This document shows, piece by piece, positions 9,047 to 19,396 of a DNA stretch of 64,000 nucleotides. Below the pieces are notes generated by a model. That model saw only the letters and a program-made list of their open reading frames with translations, was not told the DNA's origin and did no database searches. The stretch spans positions 3,187 through 67,186 of the forward strand of contig BTVI01000011.1 in NCBI GenBank assembly GCA_045862955.1. Reading direction: 5' to 3'. Position 1 is the stretch's first letter. Each line of letters begins with the position of its first letter. This DNA comes from Fimbriimonadales bacterium. Lineage in GTDB: Bacteria > Armatimonadota > Fimbriimonadia > Fimbriimonadales > JABRVX01. The position numbers and the translations under genes are program-made.

Positions 9047-11446
9047 ATGAACGTACCTGGCCGCCTCGGGTCCCTGCCTACGCTCTTCCTGCTCTCTGCG
9101 CTGCTTACACTATTTGGCCCTACGGCCTGGGCGGCTCCGGGGCCACGCACCACGATCCTCGTCCCCCTGTCCGCCTCGCCGAGTTGGAAGGACATGGCAT
9201 TCCTCGCCGCCGTGCCAGCCGCCACAGTGGCTAACAACGGAGCGCCATCGTTGATCGCACTCGAGGAGACGTTGCAGGTTGGTCCCGAGGTCCAGGACTA
9301 TGCGCGCAGGTACCACCCAGACCGGTGCGTTCTCATCGCCGAAGAGCGGGTCGAGATAGCGCTCGGCCCACGCAAGGCGAGCACGACCCAGGCCAAGTCG
9401 GCCCTCGAGGCCTCTGTGGGACTCAGCAGAGCGTTCTGGAAGTCCAGTCGCATGGCGGTCGTCTGCTCAGAGGACGACTACGCTTCGGCCCTCGTGGCTG
9501 CTCCGCTCGCTGCCCTCCTGAAGTCACCGCTACTGTTCGCCCGCGGGCGGGGCACGTCCGATGCGACGGTCAAGGAACTGACGAGGCTCGAAGTGCGCGA
9601 GGTGATAACCGTAGGTCCCGTCCGTAGTCTGGCGCACCGACGGAGCTGGAAGCTAGCCGCTTTGGACAACGCGCTGGATGTAGCCGCGTGGGCCAGGGCG
9701 CGTGGGCTCGGGGTCCGCTATCTAGCCGTCGTCAACCCACAGGACCGTAGCCGCGGGGTAGTCAGGAAACTCTCGCTGGCAGGCGCGCTGCTCGCGGCAG
9801 GGCGAGGTGGGCTCGTTGCTCCTCTCGCCTACGACGTTCGCTGGAAGCACCCGAGCAAGGCCTCCCCTCTCGACGGAGCGGTCCCGGCTGGAGTTCCGAC
9901 GTCGGTAGCACCCGCCAAGGCAGGCAGCATCGTGCTCGACGGAGAGGCGTACCCCTTCGTCTTGACGGGTGAGCCGGAAGAGCGGCACCTGCGACTATCG
10001 ATCGACGCGAATCGGGATGGGCAGTACGGCCAGGTGGGGGAAGGTCCGTTCGCTTCCGGTGACACCGTACGGCTTGGAGGCAAGACGTACGCGATTTCCC
10101 TCGGCACGCGCACCGGCTTCGGCAAGACCGATGTACACCTAACATGGCCGACGGCGGAGCAGCTCTGTCGTGACCTGCGGGGCTTTTACCGCGCGATCGG
10201 AGCGCCGCCGGAGCATCTCTGTCTCGTCGGCTTCCCGGACGCCATCCCGCAGGCCATTATCGGCCACGGCGGAGTGGTAGAGGAGCAGGTGTCCGACTTG
10301 CCCTATTCCAACGCAGACGAGGACCCCTTCGCCGAAATAGGGGTGGGGCGCGTCATCGCCGAGAACGTGTCATTTGCGACGCTCTACGCCAGCCGCGTCC
10401 TGACCTACCACGACTTGCTCAGTGCCGAGTGGCAGAACCGGGCTTGCCAGGCCGAGTGGGAAACTTCCTTCAGGGGCTTGTTCGAGAACGTAGGCTTCGA
10501 GGCGAGCTACGTACACACCGAGGAGGCTTTGGCGTGGGAGAAGCCTCCGGCAAACGGAAACCCCGGAGTTCGCGAACAGAGCTTTGGTCAGAACTCGCCT
10601 CTGGCCAACTGCGCCGCGATCACCCACGCTAGCCACTCCTGGTGGCGTGCCCTCGGCAGCACCTTTTCGTGGGATGCGACCGTGCTTATGGCCCCTGCGG
10701 TCGTCGAGTCGGGCGGCTGCGGCACGGCCTGCATCGATCGCGAGCCCGACTGTCGGTCGGTCGTTGCGCGCCTGTTTCGCCAGGGTGCGGTCGCTTTTCG
10801 TGGGGCCACGCGGGAGAGCCCGGCGGAAAGCCAGCCAGGACGTCAGGAGTTCTGGAACGGAGTGCTAGCAGGAGCCTCTGTCGGACAGGCGCATAGGCGC
10901 GCGGCGAATAGCACCATGCTTGCAGTACTGGACCTGAACGAAGGGCCCGAGGGCATATACCGCTACTCCCTGAACATCCACACGCTGTTCGGCGATCCCG
11001 CGCTTGTCATGTACCTACCAGCGAAGCCACGGTCGCGGCCGGCATGCGTATCCGTGGAAGGTGACACGGTCTCCGTGCACGCTCCGGAGAGATGGTTGCC
11101 TGTCGAGTTCACCCCTCCTTCGGACTGGAAGGAGTGGGAGGGCAAGCACCTGTACGTGGTTCGTGGAGCGGGAGCCTATGCACTGTCCGACTGGTGCGGG
11201 CAGGGCTACGATCTCGAGCAAATGTATGTCACCGTGGAGTTCACGTCCCGCAGACGTGTCACGAGCGTGAAGCAGGTGCAGACACCCCCAGCGCCGCTCG
11301 GATGGCGAGGAACTTGGCACTGCGATCCCAACCCGGACGGCTCATACACCTACCGCTGGGCGGTGCGACTGATCGACTTCGACCAGATCACGGGAAGGGT
11401 GAAGAGCGCCATAGACCGCCTCGACTACCAGGTGTCATTCGAGTAG
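9047..11446 (+). CDS. Secreted protein: three CWB2-like (cell-wall-binding repeat 2) units + clan CD (C25/gingipain-like) peptidase-like region
   Basis: Signal peptide ...LTLFGPTAWAAP. CWB2-like ...VVCSEDDYASALVAAPLAALLKSPLLFARG...VREVITVGP. Later SDLPYSNADEDPFAEIGVGRVIA, and a His...Cys pair ITHASHSWW...VVESGGCGTAC. Motif-level call only. Confidence 0.45.
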   Translation: MNVPGRLGSLPTLFLLSALLTLFGPTAWAAPGPRTTILVPLSASPSWKDMAFLAAVPAATVANNGAPSLIALEETLQVGPEVQDYARRYHPDRCVLIAEERVEIALGPRKASTTQAKSALEASVGLSRAFWKSSRMAVVCSEDDYASALVAAPLAALLKSPLLFARGRGTSDATVKELTRLEVREVITVGPVRSLAHRRSWKLAALDNALDVAAWARARGLGVRYLAVVNPQDRSRGVVRKLSLAGALLAAGRGGLVAPLAYDVRWKHPSKASPLDGAVPAGVPTSVAPAKAGSIVLDGEAYPFVLTGEPEERHLRLSIDANRDGQYGQVGEGPFASGDTVRLGGKTYAISLGTRTGFGKTDVHLTWPTAEQLCRDLRGFYRAIGAPPEHLCLVGFPDAIPQAIIGHGGVVEEQVSDLPYSNADEDPFAEIGVGRVIAENVSFATLYASRVLTYHDLLSAEWQNRACQAEWETSFRGLFENVGFEASYVHTEEALAWEKPPANGNPGVREQSFGQNSPLANCAAITHASHSWWRALGSTFSWDATVLMAPAVVESGGCGTACIDREPDCRSVVARLFRQGAVAFRGATRESPAESQPGRQEFWNGVLAGASVGQAHRRAANSTMLAVLDLNEGPEGIYRYSLNIHTLFGDPALVMYLPAKPRSRPACVSVEGDTVSVHAPERWLPVEFTPPSDWKEWEGKHLYVVRGAGAYALSDWCGQGYDLEQMYVTVEFTSRRRVTSVKQVQTPPAPLGWRGTWHCDPNPDGSYTYRWAVRLIDFDQITGRVKSAIDRLDYQVSFE

Positions 11447-11524: not shown

Positions 11525-11618
11525 GCCTCTTCCGAAATCGCGTCGACCCGACAGCGTCGGCGTTCGGGTGCTACGTGGAGTTTGCAGGCCACAGAGTGGG
11601 TTGCTGCTGCTCTTCTAT

Positions 11619-11849
11619 CCCCCCACATCCGCGATGTGGAGGGTAGAGTAGTGATAGGAACCTGTTGCTGCTATCCCTCCACATCCGCGATGTGGAGGGT
11701 AGCGTAGCGCCAGGAACCTACCATCCCTCCGCATCCGCGATGTGGAGGGTCGAGTAGCGGTAGGAGCCTACCATCCCTCCGCATCCGCGATGTGGATGGT
11801 AGCGTAGCGATAGGAACCTACCATCCCTCCACATCCGCGATGTGGAGGG
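11619..11849 (+). repeat. Palindromic-hairpin tandem array I (5 units)
   Basis: 25-nt core CCCTCCACAT-CCGCG-ATGTGGAGGG starting at 11619, 11675, 11725, 11775, 11825. The last four have an exact 50-bp period. Linkers are near-identical (TAGCGTAGCGCCAGGAACCTACCAT and variants). Confidence 0.9.
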
Positions 11850-11904
11850 ATAGCACGGTTGTAGAACTTCAGCTCGCCGTTTCCCGAGGATGGGTTACTG
11901 GCAA

Positions 11905-12011: not shown

Positions 12012-12132
12012 GTCCCGGACGGCTGCACGCTCTCACTGACCCATCCTCCTCCTGTGTTGTGGCAGCGCGCAGACCGGCTGGGTCGACGGCCTCCACCGGG
12101 TTGTTGGCGCAGTAGACGTACAGGTTCGCCAT
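12001..12132 (-). pseudogene. RHS core-end stub (orphan remnant)
   Basis: Minus-strand translation (M)ANLYVYCANNPVEAVDPAGLRAATTQEEDGSVRACSRPGPSC*. Carries the NLYxYxxNNPVxxxDPxGL core/toxin demarcation motif. Its 5' end abuts hairpin copy 12133-12157 and its stop lies in a MITE arm. Confidence 0.65.
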
Positions 12133-12257
12133 GCCTCCGCATCCGCGATGTGGAGGGTCGAGTAGCGACAGGAACCTACCATCCCTCCACATCCGCGATG
12201 TGGAGGGTCGAGTAGCGGTAGGAGCCTACCATCCCTCCGCATCCGCGATGTGGAGGG
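12133..12257 (+). repeat. Palindromic-hairpin tandem array II (3 units)
   Basis: Cores at 12133, 12183, 12233 (50-bp period), in the same orientation and with the same linker as array I. Confidence 0.9.
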
Positions 12258-12349: not shown

Positions 12350-12902
12350 CCCTCCACATCGCGGATGTGGAGGGATTGAGGATAGCCGGATGTGGAGGGT
12401 AGAGTAGTGACAGCAACATCGTTCCCAGGCCACCGTGTGCGCTCACGCCTGGCGGAGCGCTGCGAGATACCGGGGCATCGCGTCCATCACTCCTCGTACC
12501 TTGCCATCCCTCCACATTCGCGATGTGGAGGGATAGCATCCCTGCATACCGGCTCATGCCAACTGCGTCCCAGGGATCAACGCACCCACCCCGTGTCGTG
12601 AGCGCCGTCACCACTACACCCTCCACATCGCGGATGTGGAGGGATGGCCCGTCACCACTACACCCTCCACATCGCGGATGTGGAGGGATGGCACGCATCA
12701 ACGGCCGACTGGCGACAGGCGCAGCCTAGGTCCTCGCTAGCTAGTTGAACCATGGGATCCAATCCCAGTGCCAGTGTTCTGGTGTACCGGGGTTCCCCCC
12801 GTGCGGACCCCACCAATTGCGTGGTGACAGGCCCCATTTGGGTTTGCCTCGCCATGTCCACCCTATTGCTATCCCTCCACATCGCGGATGTGGAGGGATA
12901 GC
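12350..12902. repeat. Dispersed and inverted copies of the same hairpin
   Basis: Cores at 12350 (inverted, loop CGCGG), 12386-12399 (right arm only), 12508 (loop TCGCG), 12619 and 12663 (inverted, 44 bp apart), 12873 (inverted). The last sits in a perfect 15-bp-arm palindrome at 12868-12902, GCTATCCCTCCACAT CGCGG ATGTGGAGGGATAGC. Confidence 0.85.
12741..12866 (-). pseudogene. Trp-rich tail fragment resembling the C-terminus of toxin domain A
   Basis: Minus frame reads IGWTWRGKPKWGLSPRNWWGPHGGNPGTPEHWHWDWIPWFN* (9 Trp in 41 codons). Compare toxin A tails ...HRWGPKGGPSTPWWKWPHYNRRPG...RPWEGW*. The 5' side is cut by hairpin 12868-12902. Confidence 0.35.
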
Positions 12903-12988: not shown

Positions 12989-13339
12989 CTACCAACCGGC
13001 GCAGGCAAGGGCGATCGCCGCTACCGTCGCGAACAAAGCTAGTGTACAGAGGACGCTCGCAGACATGCACCCGTGACCGCGGTCCCACCTTGCCGCTGCT
13101 TCGCGCCAGTACTCGTCATTGAACCGCTCCGGCGGGGTCACGTACAGCTCCAGCATTCTAACCACCGTGGCCACCACCTTCACGCGCACCGGGCGACCAC
13201 AGGCATCCCATATTCGGTAGTCGACCTCCGTATCGGAGTCGTGGAACTCCATAGCCGCCCCAAGCTCCGCGGCGCTGGCGTAGGACGACGGCTCCTCGTC
13301 CAAGTAGTACTCCACAAGGAGCGGAAATTGCGGCTCCAA
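12989..13339 (-). CDS. Immunity protein A2 (cognate of toxin A2), C-terminal TM helix
   Basis: 116 aa, TTG start 4 nt after the toxin stop. Homologous to 15609..15959 (shared ...EF.DSD...DYR.WD...RPV.VK..AT....LELY..PP...). Ends in hydrophobic VLCTLALFATVAAIALACAG. Confidence 0.7.
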   Translation of the reverse strand: MEPQFPLLVEYYLDEEPSSYASAAELGAAMEFHDSDTEVDYRIWDACGRPVRVKVVATVVRMLELYVTPPERFNDEYWREAAARWDRGHGCMSASVLCTLALFATVAAIALACAGW

Positions 13340-13343
13340 GAGA

Positions 13344-13928
13344 CTACCAACCTTCCCAGGGCCGATGCCTTCCGATCCCGGGCCGCCGGTTGTAGTGCGG
13401 CCACTTCCACCACGGAGTCGATGGCCCGCCCTTGGGCCCCCACCTGTGTACGTCCAGCGAAAAGGTCCGGCTTCCGCGGTGGTAGAAACTCAGGCCGCCA
13501 CCTCCAGTATTGCGATAGCGCATGAGTTTGGCGCCGCGGCCCCACGCCGTACCACCCGCCTGTAGGCCCCCACCGATGCCAATTGAGACTCCGACCCCGA
13601 CTACCTGGCCACCCATGTACCAGCCGGAGCCAGTGTCCACGGTATCGGCAAGCCCTCCGAGGTCCCTAACGATCTCCGTACCTCCGAACGAGAGGAAATC
13701 CCCCATCCCTGCGAAGAAGTCGGTGAGGTTGTCGAACCAGTCCCTCGGCTTCGGAGTGATCTTCGAGACGAAGTCCGCGACTTCCTCCATGTCGTAGCCC
13801 GGGCCCTCCGCGGTCCACAGCCCGTCCCACCAGGGAGCAGGCGTGGCCGTACGCAACCCGGCGGGGTCCGCCGCTTCCACCGGGTTGTTGGCGCAGTAGG
13901 CACAGAGGCTCGGCGCGGAGTCTCGGCG
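13344..13928 (-). CDS. Orphan polymorphic-toxin cassette A2 (RHS junction + toxin domain A)
   Basis: The frame opens right after a TGA at 13929-13931: RRDSAPSLCAYCANNPVEAADPAGLRTATPAPWWDGLW...GGQVVGVGVSIGIGGGLQAGG...HRPWEGW*. Only about 17 core residues remain and there is no credible start codon or RBS. Confidence 0.75.
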   Translation of the reverse strand, partial: RRDSAPSLCAYCANNPVEAADPAGLRTATPAPWWDGLWTAEGPGYDMEEVADFVSKITPKPRDWFDNLTDFFAGMGDFLSFGGTEIVRDLGGLADTVDTGSGWYMGGQVVGVGVSIGIGGGLQAGGTAWGRGAKLMRYRNTGGGGLSFYHRGSRTFSLDVHRWGPKGGPSTPWWKWPHYNRRPGIGRHRPWEGW

Positions 13929-13932
13929 TCAC

Positions 13933-14394
13933 TCACGGTACGAACTCCATCGTGAGCATCCCGATCCAGGTGTGTCCTGGCGGTGGGGGGCCATCTGAGA
14001 GGTCCCATCCACCCCACGAATGCGCCATGAGATGATCGTGATCGGCCACTCCGCGCGCCAAGTGCCTTTCGATGACTTCTTGGATGACCGCTAGCCCTCG
14101 CGAGTCGGCAGCGATGCGTAGCTCAGTGCGCTCCGTCAGGCTGATTAGGATGTAGTGGTCCTCCGTGGTGGTCTCCGTGGCTGTCATAATTACGGCGTCT
14201 ATTAGCCTGTTCTTCCCCCACTGGGGCGTAGCGCAGGTCTCAACACTGCCCAACGCCGAGCTCCCGAAAAGTCTCTCCCCTCCAGATACTGCCAGCGCGC
14301 GAAGCGTGTCGGCCAGCAAGCGTCCACCATCGGCGTCGTAGATCAGATACGCCGTGGGTTCCGGCCGCGAATCGTCAATCTCTGCGCATATCAT
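13933..14394 (-). CDS. Immunity protein B (cognate of toxin B)
   Basis: 153 aa. ATG 13 nt after the toxin B stop, with GGAG RBS. No recognisable family. Position is typical of an immunity gene. Confidence 0.65.
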   Translation of the reverse strand: MICAEIDDSRPEPTAYLIYDADGGRLLADTLRALAVSGGERLFGSSALGSVETCATPQWGKNRLIDAVIMTATETTTEDHYILISLTERTELRIAADSRGLAVIQEVIERHLARGVADHDHLMAHSWGGWDLSDGPPPPGHTWIGMLTMEFVP

Positions 14395-14407: not shown

Positions 14408-15301
14408 CTACTGCATCGGCCAGCGTCGCTTCTCGGGCCTTGGCTGCCCGGGGACCCTAGGGTAGTTCACATCCACATGAGGGCCGAAAGGTGGCCCATG
14501 ATCAGGATCTAGGTGATAGGAGAAGCCAGACCTTGGGTTGACGTAGCCACCTCGTCCAGAGACCGGATCAGGACCTCTCACGACAAACCCCTTCTTCCGA
14601 AACATCTCATCCAGTTCCCGGGGGGACTTGCCTTTGAACGGGCTCTGCCATCCTTCACCACCTGTTGCCCCAGCGATCGCGACGCCGATGCCGACGTAGT
14701 TCTCCAGAACCTGCTCGGCTCCGCGTGCCGCCGTCTGTCCGATGGCCCGGCTTCCGGCCCCATACTGATCGATTAGGTCGGCAAGTTCGTCGCCTTCCTC
14801 GGTACCGTCGCGGTACGGGTCACCCGTGATTGCCCCGAAACCAGTCGTACCAGGCGCCAGTTTCGTTTGGTTGTACCCCAGTGCCCACTTCAGCGCGTTC
14901 CACGGCAGGCTCAGGAGCCATTCGGTACCGCTTACGACGCGATCCCACCAGCTCTTTTCATCGGGCAGATTGGTGGCCCGCCCCAACGCCGAGAAGTGTC
15001 GCAGCCCGTCCGGGTCCGCCGCTTCCACGGGGTTGTTCGCGCAGTAGACGTACAGGTTCGGGTGGCCGCCCGCCATGCCGATGGGGTCGCGCTGCAGCCA
15101 GCGGCCCACCGTGGGGTCGTACTCCCTGGCCCCGGCGTGATACAGCCCCGTGGAAGCGATGTACCGGTACCCGACCGACCCGTTCCAGCGGAAGGGATTG
15201 TCATTCACCACGTTCGAGTGGCTCGCAACCAGGGTCCCCCACGCGTGTTGGAGCTCGGTCGGGCTACGCCCTCCCTCTCTCCAACACGCTCCGTGCCACA
15301 A
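14408..15301 (-). CDS. Orphan RHS C-terminal fragment: last ~70 aa of RHS core + ~190-aa toxin domain B
   Basis: NPFRWNGSVGYRYIASTGLYHAGAREYDPTVGRWLQRDPIGMAGGHPNLYVYCANNPVEAADPDGL, then a unique C-terminal domain ending ...GGYVNPRSGFSYHLDPDHGPPFGPHVDVNYPR.... The ORF is preceded by TGA TGA and its start is a TTG with no RBS. Confidence 0.8.
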   Translation of the reverse strand: MWHGACWREGGRSPTELQHAWGTLVASHSNVVNDNPFRWNGSVGYRYIASTGLYHAGAREYDPTVGRWLQRDPIGMAGGHPNLYVYCANNPVEAADPDGLRHFSALGRATNLPDEKSWWDRVVSGTEWLLSLPWNALKWALGYNQTKLAPGTTGFGAITGDPYRDGTEEGDELADLIDQYGAGSRAIGQTAARGAEQVLENYVGIGVAIAGATGGEGWQSPFKGKSPRELDEMFRKKGFVVRGPDPVSGRGGYVNPRSGFSYHLDPDHGPPFGPHVDVNYPRVPGQPRPEKRRWPMQ

Positions 15302-15388
15302 TCATCACCAACGCGGGAGGACTCACCTTAGGATGTCTTCCAAGAAGGGGGCAGGCCACCAGCTGCTCTTTAGGGGCTCCCCCTCTTC

Positions 15389-15544
15389 CTATACCACCAC
15401 GTGCACATGGAGTGTCGCCTGACGGGTCTCTCGATCAACCGCCGCCGGTACTAGGTCGAGCTCTCCATCGTGGATCAGCGATGCCAGTCGATCCAACTCG
15501 GCGCTGTCGTGAACCTCGAATAGGACTGTGCGGTCGTTCACCAT
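15389..15544 (-). CDS. Possible 51-codon ORF between cassettes
   Basis: Below ORF-track cutoff. ATG 15544: MVNDRTVLFEVHDSAELDRLASLIHDGELDLVPAAVDRETRQATLHVHVVV*. Could be an immunity or antitoxin remnant. Confidence 0.3.
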   Translation of the reverse strand: MVNDRTVLFEVHDSAELDRLASLIHDGELDLVPAAVDRETRQATLHVHVVV

Positions 15545-15608
15545 AGTGTTAGTTCAATCTGTCTCAGAGCGAAGCAGTGTGGGCCCAGGCGCCCAGCCCT
15601 AGCCCGTG

Positions 15609-15959
15609 TCAGGACAGTGACGCAAATGCAACCCAAGCCAGCACGAAGCCGATCGCCATGCCACTCCCAAGGAGTGCACAGCCGGGTTTCTGGCGTGCTG
15701 GGGTGGTCACTCGCCAGGACGGATCGGTGTAGTGCGCGGGCGGGTCTTCATACAACTCGAGCAGCTTCAGCTCGGTCGCCCAGGCCTTTACGTGCACAGG
15801 TCTATCTAGTCCATCCCACACCCGGTAATCTGGATCGTCCGAGTCGAAGAACTCCTGATCCGTTGCCAGCTCATCGCCTGAATCGTACAACGTGTCAGCA
15901 TCGGGCGGGTCGTATCTGAACTCCACACGAAACGGTGGCTGTGGTTGCTCCGGTTGCAC
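15609..15959 (-). CDS. Immunity protein A1 (cognate of toxin A1), C-terminal TM helix
   Basis: 116 aa, GTG start 3 nt after the toxin A1 stop. Paralog of 12989..13339. Ends in ALLGSGMAIGFVLAWVAFASL. Confidence 0.7.
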   Translation of the reverse strand: MQPEQPQPPFRVEFRYDPPDADTLYDSGDELATDQEFFDSDDPDYRVWDGLDRPVHVKAWATELKLLELYEDPPAHYTDPSWRVTTPARQKPGCALLGSGMAIGFVLAWVAFASLS

Positions 15960-15962
15960 TAC

Positions 15963-16975
15963 CTACCACCCTTGCCAGGGTCGATGGCGGCCTATGGCGC
16001 CACCTGGTCCTTCGAATCTCCTGTGATAGTGCGGCCACCTCCACCAGGGCGCTGGAGGTCCACCCTTCTTCGGCACCCACCTGTGGATGTCTGCCGTGAA
16101 CACTCGCTCTCCACGGTTGTAGAAGTTCAGGCCGCCACCTCCAGTATTGCGATAGCGCATGAGTTTGGCGCCGCGGCCCCACGCCGTACCACCCGCCTGT
16201 AGGCCCCCACCGATGCCAATTGAGACTCCGACCCCGACTACCTGGCCGCCCATGTACCATCCGGAGCCAGTGTCCACCACATCGCCAAGCCCTCCGAGGT
16301 CCCTAACGATCTCCGTACCTCCGAACGAGAGGAAATCCCCCATCCCTGCGAAGAAGTCGGTGAGGTTGTCGAACCAGTCCCTCGGCTTCGGAGTGATCTT
16401 CGAGACCAGCTCGGCAACGTCCTCCATGTCGTAGCCTGGGCCATCGTTCGTCCACAGCCCGGCCCACGCAGGTCCCCGGGTGGCCCGGCATCGCGGAGCT
16501 CGTGCGGGGCAGGCGACTCTGTAAAGTGCAGGAATGAACGGACCCCGTCAGGATCGATTGGATGACCCGTGGTGGTTGAGAACGCTAGCGCTGAGCCGTC
16601 CACATCGTAGACGTAGTAGCGGTCAGCCCACCCCGTTCCGTCGTGGAACCAGTTCAGACCCTTGCTAGCCGCCTCGCCAACTTGCTTCAGGTGGATGAAG
16701 GCAGTTCCGAGCAGGTTGCCGATCGCGCGATTGGCGCCGTGCTCGTTTGCCTGAGGAGCTATGACGAAGGACAGGTCAATGGGCAGTTGGCCGACAACCG
16801 GTGCAGACAGCGCTATGCGCCCGCCGCCGGTAAAGGCACCCCCGGCTCGCCACTGCGTCTGTGGCGTCTGGTCTGGAATCGTGCTCTGCGCCCGGACAAA
16901 GGCAGCGCTTGGTGCGAATAGCACCCCGAGTAACGCGATTCCTCTTGTCACGAAGGAGACCATCATCGTCCGCAT
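15963..16975 (-). pseudogene. Signal-peptide mini-RHS-like toxin A1, frameshifted at the DPxGL junction
   Basis: ATG 16975 (GGAGGG RBS): MRTMMVSFVTRGIALLGVLFAPSAAFVRAQS...RYYVYDVDGSALAF...SPAPHELRDAG. The frame then changes at 16483/16484 into ...ATRGPAWAGLWTNDGPGYDMEDV...toxin A. Both frames are open across the junction. Confidence 0.65.
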
Positions 16976-17109
16976 GAACGAACCCTCCGTTGTCGTTTCG
17001 CCAGTGACGCTTCGCGAAATGGCGTACACGGTCATTCTGCCAGCATACGGCTTCTTCCTGCCAGGTACTTTTACGGGTTTTCGCCTTCTTGACGCGCAGC
17101 CCAACCGCA

Positions 17110-17142
17110 ACCGGCCCGGGGGAGGTGGTTGCCCGGGCCGGT
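17110..17142 (-). terminator. Hairpin terminator after the PFOR operon
   Basis: ACCGGCCCGGG ... CCCGGGCCGGT (11-bp stem, 11-nt loop), 32 nt after stop 17174. Followed on the minus strand by TTGCGGTTGG. Confidence 0.5.
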
Positions 17143-17173
17143 AGGTGTCGGGTCTAAGGAGGAGGGAGGTGCG

Positions 17174-19396
17174 TTACAGCGTCGGGTCCTCGTGCATCGC
17201 CTTCAGGCGTCGCCAGCGGCGGTCCACCTCGGCTTGCAGGTCCGCGATCTCTTGTGCGTGGTTCTCTCCGCGAAGGTAGACGCCCGCCTTGCCCATTGCC
17301 CCAAAGAGCTCTTCCACGCCTATTTTCTTTCCGGTCGCCTCGGGATCATAGTTCAGTTTCGTGATCCCGTTCTCGATTTCCAGCAGCGGGAAGAAGCAGC
17401 TGTCCAGCGCTTTCTGCACGACTTCGGGCCCTGCCCAGTCGGGCGTTACCCAGTTCAGCGGGCACACGGAGAAGGACTTCACGAACACGAAGTTGCCGTC
17501 CCTTACGTGCTGTTGCGCCTTACGCGCCTTTCGAATGGCATCTTCCACGTGGGTTTCCGCCACGGTCGCGATGTATCGGCAGTGCGTGCCACGCATCAGT
17601 TCGATCATGTCTTTGTGGTGGAAGGCCTTGCCGCCCGGAGAGGTGGTAGTGAAGAGCCCCTTCGGCGCCGTGTAGCATAGCTGCGCACCCGTGTTCGCGT
17701 ACACGTTATTGTCGTACTCGAAATAGATGAACGGGTGGTTGCGAATGGCTGCACTCAGCAGCTGGTCGAGGCCGATGTCGCCCGACCCGTCTCCGCCCAC
17801 TGCGATCACCGTGGTCTCCTCGGTGATCAGCCCCTTGGACCGAGCCAGGCGGTATGTCTCGACGATTCCCACCGCCGTGGACGAGTTGTTGTGGAACAGG
17901 TTGTGCATGTAGGGCACGCGGAACGAGGTGTCCGGGAATCCCGTGGTGACGACCATGCCGCACCCGGTGTTGAACAGCAACACGGTGGGTCCATCGATTC
18001 CAGAGAGGAAGATGTCCAGGTTCACGAACGCACCGCACCCTGGGCACGACTGCGGGTGAGCGATGCGGTGTGGCATGTCCGAGGCAAGGGTGCGCAGCGT
18101 CTGAATATTCACTCGCTCTCCCAGCCCTTCGTTCACCACGAAGTCCTTCGGGTCTTCGGGTTCGAACCGCTTGGTCGGCAGCTTCTCGGGCGAGCCGGGC
18201 CAGTGGCCGTAATAGTCGAACTTCGGCACCTCTTCGCCGCGGTTAGCGGCCAGTGCCTGCCCGAACAGCTTCTCCGCATCCTGCCACGTGAAAATGAGAC
18301 CGCCGAGGCCGTACACTCGGGTGAGCAGCCGGCAGTCGTTGCGCTCCTCCTGAAGCACGGTCGCAATCTCGTTGGTGACCCAGCCGGCCGGGCCTCCGTA
18401 CTGATCGGCGCGCTCGGCGATCAGCGCGGTCTTCGCGTTCCTGAAAGCTTCCGCCACCTCCTTGGAAGGGAAGGGGCGCAGTACGCGAAGCGAAATGGAG
18501 CCTACCTTGTCGCCCTTCTCGCGCAGCTTGTCCACGGCATCACGGATGGTCTCGGATGCCGAGCAGAGCGAGAACATCACCGTCTCCGGCTTGTCCTCCG
18601 TGCGGTAGGTGTCTATGATGTCGTACTTGCGACCCGAGAACTTCGCATAGTCCTCGAGGATGCCCGGGATGACCTCCATGGCTTCCTTCATCGCCAGGTG
18701 GAGCTGGTACTTGTTGTTGATAAGGTCGTCGTTCATGTATGGCCCGAAGGTCTTCGGGTTGTGCACGTCGAGGATAGAGGGACGCGGAGGCTTCGGCCCG
18801 ATCCACGCCTTTACATCGTCGCGGTTGGAGAAGATCTCGATGCGCCGCGTTCCGTGACTAGTGAAGAAGCCGTCGTACACCACCATCGCCGGCAGGCTCA
18901 CGCGCTCTGCCCACTTCAGCGCGATGATGTTCATATCGTACACTTCTTGCACGTTGTTGGCGAGGAGGATCAGCCATCCTGTGCCGAGCGTGTGCAGAAA
19001 GTCGGAGTGGTCGCACTTGATGTTGAGCGGGGCAGAGACCGCGCGCGCGGCGATGTTCATCACCATCGGCAGCCGAAGGCCGGACAGCACCGGCAGCTCC
19101 TCGAACTTCAGCAGCAGTCCCTGGGCGGATGTCACGTCTACCGCCCTCGCGCCCGCCGCCGCGGCTCCCGTGCAGATGCCGATTGCCGCCAGCTCGCTAT
19201 TAGCGGGCACGAACACCATGTCCAGCTCGCCCTTTGCTATCTTCGCGGCGACCGCTTCCCCCACTTCGCTGGACGGTGTGATCGGATAAAAGCCCTCGAG
19301 GTCGTACCCGATAGCGGCGATGGCCTCGGCAGCGGCGTAGTTGCCGCTGAGGACGGCCACCTTCTGTTCGGCAGTCTTATGCGTTAACAGCGTCAC
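17174..19396 (-). CDS. 2-oxoacid (pyruvate-type):ferredoxin oxidoreductase, fused alpha-beta subunit
   Basis: 740 aa. N-terminal PorA-like LSGNYAAAEAIAAIGYDLEGFYPITPSSEV. C-terminal PorB-like CPGCG...GGDGSGDIGLDQL TPP-binding region. Confidence 0.85.
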   Translation of the reverse strand: MTLLTHKTAEQKVAVLSGNYAAAEAIAAIGYDLEGFYPITPSSEVGEAVAAKIAKGELDMVFVPANSELAAIGICTGAAAAGARAVDVTSAQGLLLKFEELPVLSGLRLPMVMNIAARAVSAPLNIKCDHSDFLHTLGTGWLILLANNVQEVYDMNIIALKWAERVSLPAMVVYDGFFTSHGTRRIEIFSNRDDVKAWIGPKPPRPSILDVHNPKTFGPYMNDDLINNKYQLHLAMKEAMEVIPGILEDYAKFSGRKYDIIDTYRTEDKPETVMFSLCSASETIRDAVDKLREKGDKVGSISLRVLRPFPSKEVAEAFRNAKTALIAERADQYGGPAGWVTNEIATVLQEERNDCRLLTRVYGLGGLIFTWQDAEKLFGQALAANRGEEVPKFDYYGHWPGSPEKLPTKRFEPEDPKDFVVNEGLGERVNIQTLRTLASDMPHRIAHPQSCPGCGAFVNLDIFLSGIDGPTVLLFNTGCGMVVTTGFPDTSFRVPYMHNLFHNNSSTAVGIVETYRLARSKGLITEETTVIAVGGDGSGDIGLDQLLSAAIRNHPFIYFEYDNNVYANTGAQLCYTAPKGLFTTTSPGGKAFHHKDMIELMRGTHCRYIATVAETHVEDAIRKARKAQQHVRDGNFVFVKSFSVCPLNWVTPDWAGPEVVQKALDSCFFPLLEIENGITKLNYDPEATGKKIGVEELFGAMGKAGVYLRGENHAQEIADLQAEVDRRWRRLKAMHEDPTL

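Follow-up and report, generated by a model that had tools for sequence, protein, structure and literature searches.

We report a gene remnant in a 64,000-nucleotide stretch of contig BTVI01000011.1 from the Fimbriimonadales bacterium assembly GCA_045862955.1 (hereafter the window), where a minus-strand open reading frame (ORF) with a Sec-type signal peptide lies directly next to the coding sequence of a toxin, which we call A1, and is out of frame with it by one base. The site is probably the scar of one large deletion in the gene of a Sec-exported RHS (YD-repeat) polymorphic toxin: the ORF is collinear with the N-termini of RHS proteins, its homology to them ends where homology to relatives of the toxin begins, the two parents share a 10-nt string at that point but read it in different phases, and the YD-repeat shell is absent from the window. 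A preliminary description of this DNA had attributed the frame break to a 10-nt deletion exactly at the DPxGL junction of the cassette; its quoted strings and its frame arithmetic hold, but the deletion itself is refuted by a gap-free alignment to a related RHS locus.

Results

The features that meet at the junction are the following.

16889..16975, minus strand: Sec-type signal peptide of the RHS remnant, MRTMMVSFVTRGIALLGVLFAPSAAFVRA then QS (translation)
16458..16975, minus strand: RHS N-terminal remnant, comprising the signal peptide and an N-terminal domain of ~140 aa, and ending ...ELRDAGPPGDLRGPG (HMMER, blastn, tblastn)
16458..16467, minus strand: junction microhomology GTGGGCCGGG (three-way DNA comparison)
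16238..16457, minus strand: out-of-frame tail of the signal-peptide ORF, CGRTMAQATTWRT..., with its stop at 16240-16238
15963..16467, minus strand: toxin A1 coding remnant, WAGLWTNDGPGYDMEDV...RPWQGW, with its first ATG at 16427 and its stop at 15965-15963

The N-terminal part

The signal-peptide ORF begins with an ATG at 16975 and remains open to 16238 on the minus strand (245 aa). Its 19-residue hydropathy maximum falls at residues 3-21; the signal peptide segment is identical in the orthologue of a related strain (L001, see below) and aligns with the signal peptide of P0005, and a V-R-A pattern suggests the position of its cleavage site. A word-indexed protein search with this ORF gave zero matches and missed the L001 orthologue as well, so an exhaustive HMMER scan of 1.8 billion representative proteins was needed, and this revealed just three relatives: P0004 (580 aa; 76% identity to ORF residues 94-169, E 7.5e-30), P0005 (252 aa, with a signal peptide of its own; E 3e-22) and P0006 (1323 aa; residues 2-131 against ORF residues 40-168, E 1.9e-19). 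Pfam RHS_repeat is present in P0004 and P0006, and the latter is a complete RHS protein, ending ...YCANDPVEAVDSDGL followed by a toxin. Residues 2-136 of P0006 map by tblastn to window 16858-16457, and window 16773-16458 aligns by blastn with positions 400-715 of L004, the P0004 locus, at 82% nucleotide identity (E 7e-88), with two 1-nt gaps only, around 16640. All three relatives carry the motif [ND]AGPPG[DS][LI]RxxG[LF]W[LV]Y some 130-160 residues from the N-terminus; here the window reads ELRDAGPPGDLRGPG against ELRNAGPPGDLRGPG / ELRNAGPPGDLRGPGLWLYRF in P0004, and the window protein departs from the RHS N-termini directly after RGPG.

The gene that starts at 16975 thus begins as an RHS gene. 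It has no YD/RHS repeat shell, Pfam and NCBIfam return no family and no RHS repeats for its product, no RHS core ending in PxxxxDPxGL directly precedes the toxin, and upstream of A1 there is no core-end sequence in any frame. Because it lacks both the repeats and the core with DPxGL, we regard it as a remnant rather than a working RHS protein.

In L004 (positions 1-476), too, the RHS gene is truncated: its 5' end breaks off at ...LSFVIAP, next to an unrelated minus-strand gene. The cut corresponds to window position 16773 and lies within 12 nt of the end of the L001 match (16785), a nearness that could be coincidence, a hotspot or the product of a chimeric short contig.

The junction

We compared the window with L004, representing the N-terminal parent, and with two relatives of the toxin, namely A2, a second copy in the window, and L001-A, the copy in the related strain, by identity over 12-nt segments. 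Homology to L004 stops at 16458, after ...CTGCGTGGGCCGGG, and then collapses; identity is 8-11/12 down to the segment starting at 16466 and 3-5/12 afterwards. Homology to A2 and L001-A is high from 16467, starting GTGGGCCGGGCTGTGGAC, and identity to both climbs to 9-12/12 from about 16472. The two homologies overlap in the 10-mer GTGGGCCGGG, and the corresponding strings are GTGGACCGGG in L004, GTGGGCCGGA in L001-A and GTGGGACGGG in A2. Read in the N-terminal frame the 10-mer is cGT GGG CCG GGn (RGPG), and in the toxin frame it is G TGG GCC GGG (WAG); because the phase differs between the parents, a crossover within it joins them one base out of frame by construction, and a separate frameshift mutation is not needed. 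The spacing from GTGG to TGG in the window is 16 nt, exactly that of the toxin parent.

The 12 nucleotides just upstream of the 10-mer (16479-16468) match L004 at 11/12 positions and L001-A at 5/12 by our own count and are therefore N-terminal DNA. A crossover at GGCCAC (16485), where the blastn match to L001-A starts, was considered and rejected on the same counts. Directly upstream of the toxin, A2 and L001-A carry CANNPVEAADPAGL, which A1 lacks; homology of A1 to these copies begins at 16467, 13 codons past their DPAGL. A core 3' fragment including DPxGL precedes the toxin in A2, in L001-A and in a third cassette, B, and is missing before A1.

These boundaries also decide the fate of the 10-nt deletion, in which loss of ttgcgtacgg at the DPxGL junction would have inactivated an otherwise intact cassette. 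Its raw material is real. The minus strand at 16492-16475 reads GAT GCC GGG CCA CCC GGG; A2 reads GAC CCC GCC GGG TTG CGT ACG GCC ACG, with DPAGL at 13868-13854; and plus-strand positions 13847-13856 are CCGTACGCAA. GCCGGG is found in both A1 and A2, and with these as anchors A2 is 10 bases longer than A1 before GGGCTGTGGAC. Ten nucleotides, being 1 mod 3, fit the frame offset, so that their insertion would fuse the signal-peptide frame (16975) to the toxin frame (16427), as would 1, 4 or 7 nt, and the fused product would be without an RHS shell. However, gat gcc ggg cca ccc (DAGPP) belongs to the conserved N-terminal RHS motif and not to a DPxGL junction, GCC GGN encoding the AG of NAGPPG: L004 has AAC GCC GGT CCG CCC GGG at the same place, its alignment is gap-free between 16484 and 16483, where nothing is missing, and its RHS-repeat ORF continues in frame beyond the motif. 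Upstream of GCCGGG, A1 bears no likeness to the CANNPVEAAD core end found ahead of DPAGL in A2 and L001-A (identity to the core end is 7/21 by our own count, about random), and the 12 nt that follow the supposed deletion are the L004-like ones at 16479-16468. By the L004 alignment, the sites in A1 and A2 are not homologous. The disabling lesion is instead a deletion of ~1,040 codons with its junction at 16467-16458, ~20 nt downstream of the site first noted. Recombination with an orphan cassette, which had been put forward as a route to repair, would leave the damage in place, since A1 and A2 are alike only from 16467 onward and an exchange would keep the frame break. We consider a 10-nt deletion extremely unlikely.

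Programmed -1 ribosomal frameshifting could in principle join the signal-peptide ORF to A1, as the toxin is read at -1 with respect to the signal peptide; the toxin frame is open from a stop at 16550 to the stop at 15965-15963 and overlaps the signal-peptide frame over 16550-16238. Yet an X XXY YYZ heptamer is missing from the whole signal-peptide frame (16975 to 16238), the related strain, with its different gene structure, does not share the arrangement, and the deletion scar fully accounts for the junction, which leaves frameshifting with next to no probability.

Extent of the deletion and proposed origin

Searches by tblastn with P0004, P0005 and P0006 found the shell nowhere in the 64 kb. 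Residues 137-1082 of P0006 have no tblastn match anywhere in the window; apart from its N-terminal part, P0006 matches there only with its core end (aa 1083-1166 at 15244-14993) and in two short remnants. The deleted part, ~1,040 codons, thus corresponds to P0006 residues ~137 to ~1180, that is, to the shell, the core end, DPxGL and the ~13 residues after it.

We envision an ancestral gene that encoded, in order, a signal peptide, an N-terminal domain of ~140 aa, a YD-repeat shell of ~1,000 aa, a core end with PxxxxDPxGL and the toxin, and that was followed by an immunity gene and then by orphan toxin/immunity cassettes. Illegitimate recombination at the 10-nt microhomology (16467-16458) would have fused the N-terminal domain, after ...AGPPGDLRGPG, to toxin A1 at a point ~13 codons past DPxGL, and the shell, the core end and the DPxGL cleavage site would have been lost in the same event, possibly together with an intervening cassette. 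Under such circumstances, the junction would be the product of a single event, and what is left would be a 245-aa ORF, made of the signal peptide, an N-terminal stub and a 73-aa nonsense tail, next to a toxin A1 fragment that could not be delivered, so that the locus is presumably non-functional as a toxin. Downstream there remain two further orphan cassettes and presumed immunity genes that look intact.

Several points weigh against this account. The junction is known from one assembly, and the window contig lies outside the collections searched, in which there were neither confirming reads nor independent contigs: scans of genome and metagenome contigs with the signal-peptide ORF protein gave zero relatives, a degenerate 46-nt DNA pattern from the N-terminal domain recovered the L004 contig only, and an independent copy of the junction was not found in these contigs. 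L004, at only 82% identity to the window, serves as a proxy for the N-terminal parent of this strain, so that the crossover can be placed only within the 16-nt string GTGGGCCGGGCTGTGG (16467-16452). The sequence could also have arisen from an in-frame join through ...GGG CTG TGG that then lost one G. In addition, assemblies of metagenome-assembled genomes (MAGs) can be chimeric at repeated cassettes.

The in-frame join deserves to be spelled out. If the fusion truly read ...CGT GGG CCG GGG CTG TGG ACG..., the break would reflect either an error in sequencing or consensus calling or the very recent loss of 1 nt, and the product would be a shell-less protein of ~330 aa consisting of signal peptide, RHS N-terminal stub and toxin A1 (...DLRGPGLWTNDGPGYDMEDV...). 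One extra G at 16460-16458, in CCGGGCTG, would restore the frame, giving ...DLRGPGLWTNDGPGYD..., and it would recreate the GLW of both parents (RGPGLW in P0004, WAGLW in toxin A); moreover, L001 matches the presumed immunity gene I1 and the 3' half of A1 at 98-100% identity, with no visible decay. On the other hand, this requires two events where one suffices, and the 16-nt spacing, being that of the toxin parent, is what a crossover in the 10-mer predicts. Short-read data are not prone to errors at a run of three Gs, and phase variation would need a longer one. Searches for toxin A among 5.8 billion proteins, with the single sequence and with a 4-sequence profile, found three clusters only, all orphan-type, and among these proteins there was no example of toxin A on a full-length RHS protein or on a signal peptide; the fusion would also have neither shell nor DPxGL cleavage site, both of which RHS toxins use. 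We therefore consider an in-frame fusion unlikely, and it is very unlikely that loss of the shell thereby converted an encapsulated RHS toxin into a Sec-exported glycine-zipper toxin of ~330 aa. Were the fusion in frame, the in-frame mini-RHS of the related strain, described below, would represent a second example of this one route from an RHS toxin to a bacteriocin-like secreted toxin.

Related strain

Two independent assemblies, L001 from NCBI (GCA_964650095.1) and L002 from a JGI metagenome, represent one related Fimbriimonadales strain. The locus is syntenic in both, with the order PFOR (pyruvate:ferredoxin oxidoreductase), RHS locus and C25 peptidase, and the flanking DNA is ~94.5% identical to the window. 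In L001 the reading frame passes without a break from the same signal peptide and the first ~65 residues into a 288-aa 'mini-RHS'; it follows that the signal peptide belongs to the ancestral RHS gene. The L001/L002 mini-RHS (L001 8208-9400) maps to P0006 aa 2-26, 918-959 and 1079-1175, and the shell of ~1,000 aa is absent. After it come toxin B (frameshifted here, intact in the window), a presumed immunity gene, a single orphan copy of toxin A with an intact CANNPVEAADPAGL leader, and its immunity gene (ImmA), followed by the conserved 51-aa ORF and a 74-nt core fragment. Window positions 16784-16486 (299 nt) are absent from L001; because P0005 and P0006 are continuous across the boundary, these 299 nt are ancestral N-terminal sequence that was deleted in L001. 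Both strains thus lost the shell, independently and at different breakpoints.

The related strain also bears on whether the junction is an assembly chimera, with an intact RHS gene really lying between the N-terminal domain and the toxin. The window comes from a MAG (P0002, the database entry for A2, is named 'MAG: ... Fimbriimonadales bacterium'), and the locus holds repeated cassettes, A1 and A2 being 94-100% identical over ~300 nt. The breakpoint, however, lies outside any long repeat, with a shared string of only 10-16 nt, below usual assembler k-mer sizes, and the near-identical stretch of A1 and A2 begins ~50 nt downstream of it. The shell is, moreover, also absent from the two independent assemblies of the related strain, so that its loss at this locus is real in the lineage. 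We thus judge a chimera quite unlikely and retain the deletion as the most probable explanation of the junction.

Cassettes and presumed immunity genes

The remaining features of the locus are the following; a scan of 15100-17300 for consensus promoters and terminators gave no match.

19396-17174, minus strand: PFOR gene, upstream of the RHS remnant
15609..15959, minus strand: I1, presumed immunity gene of A1, 116 aa (role suggested by position only)
15389..15544, minus strand: conserved 51-aa ORF MVNDRTVLFEVHD... (MVNDRTVLFEVHDSAELDRLASLIHDGELDLVPAAVDRETRQATLHVHVVV), in the 'tail' that separates I1 from the following cassette
14408..15301, minus strand: orphan cassette B, an RHS core 3' fragment (AWGTLVASHSNV... 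to CANNPVEAADPDGL) and then toxin B
13933..14394, minus strand: presumed immunity gene for toxin B, 153 aa (sub-threshold Imm32)
13344..13913, minus strand: orphan cassette A2, a core-end remnant of 17-20 codons SLCAYCANNPVEAA, DPAGL at 13868-13854 and toxin A2
12989..13339, minus strand: I2, presumed immunity gene of A2, 116 aa
12059..12128, minus strand: third core-end remnant NLYVYCANNPVEAVDPAGLRAAT, with no toxin after it (repeat family D3)
Between I2 and the C25-peptidase gene: field of palindromic repeats, which holds the third core-end remnant
9047-11446: C25-peptidase gene, convergent

Toxin A1 shares 93% amino acid identity with P0001 and 84% with P0002; A2 is identical to P0002, which NCBI names as a Fimbriimonadales bacterium MAG protein, and it is preceded by only SLCAYCANNPVEAADPAGL of the RHS core, a member of repeat family D3. 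No Pfam or NCBIfam family lies above the cut-off for toxin A, I1 or I2, and the scan of these and of the signal-peptide ORF gave a sub-threshold match to PorACj (E 0.0035). Toxin A contains three overlapping [GAS]xxxGxxx[GAS] motifs in GGQVVGVGVSIGIGGGLQAGG, followed by a basic, aromatic-rich tail, and I1 and I2 each have a C-terminal hydrophobic helix (for I1, hydropathy windows exceed 1.6 over residues 92-116). A reasonable guess is that toxin A acts on membranes and is countered by a membrane-anchored immunity protein; the guess rests on the motifs, since the AlphaFold2 model built for toxin A on an alignment of four sequences has a pLDDT of 32.5 and is unusable.

I1 starts 4 nt after the A1 stop, matches no immunity family and has a counterpart in L001 at 10469-10819 with 99% nucleotide identity; its putative immunity role is suggested by its position, and I2 is likewise a presumed immunity gene. 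The 51-aa ORF (15544-15389) has the same amino acid sequence as L001 10884-11039 and no family match. In cassette B the core fragment matches TIGR03696 (Rhs_assc_core, E 1.3e-21) and is the site of the P0006 aa 1083-1166 match. The presumed immunity gene for toxin B has a weak match to Pfam Imm32 (E 1.1e-5; 25.7 bits, below the cut-off of 27) and is conserved in L001 at 9397-9858. The third core-end remnant (12128-12059) is 88.6% identical to L001 9879-9948.

A1 is a mosaic. Its 5' part (16417-16120) is closest to A2, at 94-100% identity (compared with A2 13780-13344), and its 3' part (16167-15963) is closest to L001-A; from there through I1, the 51-aa ORF and the tail to 15173, identity to L001 is 97-100% (compared with 9943-11255). 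The identity of the A1 3' part and I1 to L001 exceeds the 94.5% of the neighbouring PFOR and flanking housekeeping DNA. This pattern suggests that gene conversion may have taken place between cassettes, along with recent strain-to-strain exchange or a sweep of the immunity region.

The 74-nt core-fragment start (AWGxLVASHSNVxNDNPFRWNG), at 15246-15173 in the window, has two copies in L001 (8533-8606 and 11182-11255), which form a direct repeat around a unit of core, B, ImmB, A, ImmA and tail. The window looks like two such units in tandem, the first truncated by the deletion, and unequal crossing-over at the 74-nt repeat could explain the differing numbers of cassettes.

Repeats and a toxin relic near the C25-peptidase gene

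Between 11619 and 12897 the window holds 13 copies of a 25-nt perfect palindrome, CCCTCCACAT-CSSSG-ATGTGGAGGG, with a 10-bp stem, where chance would give none. Some of them form tandem arrays with a 50-nt period (11617-11854 and 12129-12257) or a 44-nt period (12605-12692), and both loop orientations are represented. All of the palindromes lie in the gap that separates the last orphan cassette from the C25-peptidase gene, with none elsewhere in the 64 kb and none in the matching gap of L001/L002; possibly they are hairpin elements akin to REPs or MITEs. Within the same gap, the minus strand at 12878-12745 encodes the C-terminal relic of a third toxin A variant, of the P0003 type (GWTWRGKPKWGLSPRNWWGPHGGNPGTPEHWHWDWI... 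against GWTWRDEPRWGLSPRNGWGPHGGKPGTPEHWHRDWNPWF in P0003), which is cut on its 5' side by the hairpin repeat at 12873-12897 and is 83% identical in nucleotide sequence to L003 1027-1192.

Discussion

The locus is of a known kind, an Rhs/YD polymorphic toxin locus with orphan C-terminal toxin (CT)/immunity modules that has probably become a pseudogene through ordinary gene decay, and it represents a late stage in the decay of an RHS locus in Armatimonadota. This explanation disposes of a false lead, since the locus has neither a 10-nt lesion at a DPxGL junction nor an 'expressed copy' open to repair. In two related strains the shell was lost at different breakpoints while toxin/immunity cassettes were kept, which fits immunity genes outlasting the weapon, and the join described here is microhomology-mediated, in contrast to the usual exchange through the core. 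Toxin A is a very rare family and so is the N-terminal domain, each being represented by three protein clusters in databases that run to billions of entries, and the locus is thus an addition to the catalogue of polymorphic toxins.

Bacillus subtilis WapA is a signal-peptide-bearing YD-repeat toxin without a type VI secretion adaptor, and the ancestral gene in the window resembles it in having an N-terminal Sec signal peptide on an RHS/YD-repeat toxin, a likeness of architecture. Orphan rhs genes of Salmonella are reportedly activated by homologous recombination in shared core sequence, yielding an in-frame chimera, whereas the illegitimate join in the window breaks the frame and eliminates the delivery shell. 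The arrangement in Salmonella Typhimurium, as described by Starsta et al. 2020 (PMC7043789), is similar, in that a full-length main rhs gene stands beside an orphan rhs without the delivery part.

A close parallel is with the Rhs loci of Poole et al. 2011 (PMC3150448), in which orphan rhs-CT/rhsI modules lie downstream of rhs genes, sequences diverge abruptly after DPxGL, and a 'C-terminal displacement' model was proposed. As in those loci, variable C-terminal toxin cassettes form an array in the window, with a small presumed immunity gene after each, and B and A2 have retained a 3' portion of the RHS core that ends in DPxGL, as the orphan modules do (PMC3150448). It differs from them (PMC3150448) in that the 'main' gene lacks its entire shell, that A1 is joined at a 10-nt microhomology inside the toxin and not via the core or DPxGL, and that the host is an armatimonadotal bacterium whose RHS gene carried a Sec signal peptide instead of a PAAR/VgrG-linked N-terminus. 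The zipper motifs of toxin A, finally, recall glycine-zipper membrane-depolarising toxins such as the C-terminus of EsxX (PMC12744356) and the contact-dependent inhibition (CDI) ionophoric toxins (PMC11630599), a resemblance of motif only, and the hydrophobic C-terminal helices of I1 and I2 have the pattern that would be expected of immunity to a membrane-acting toxin.

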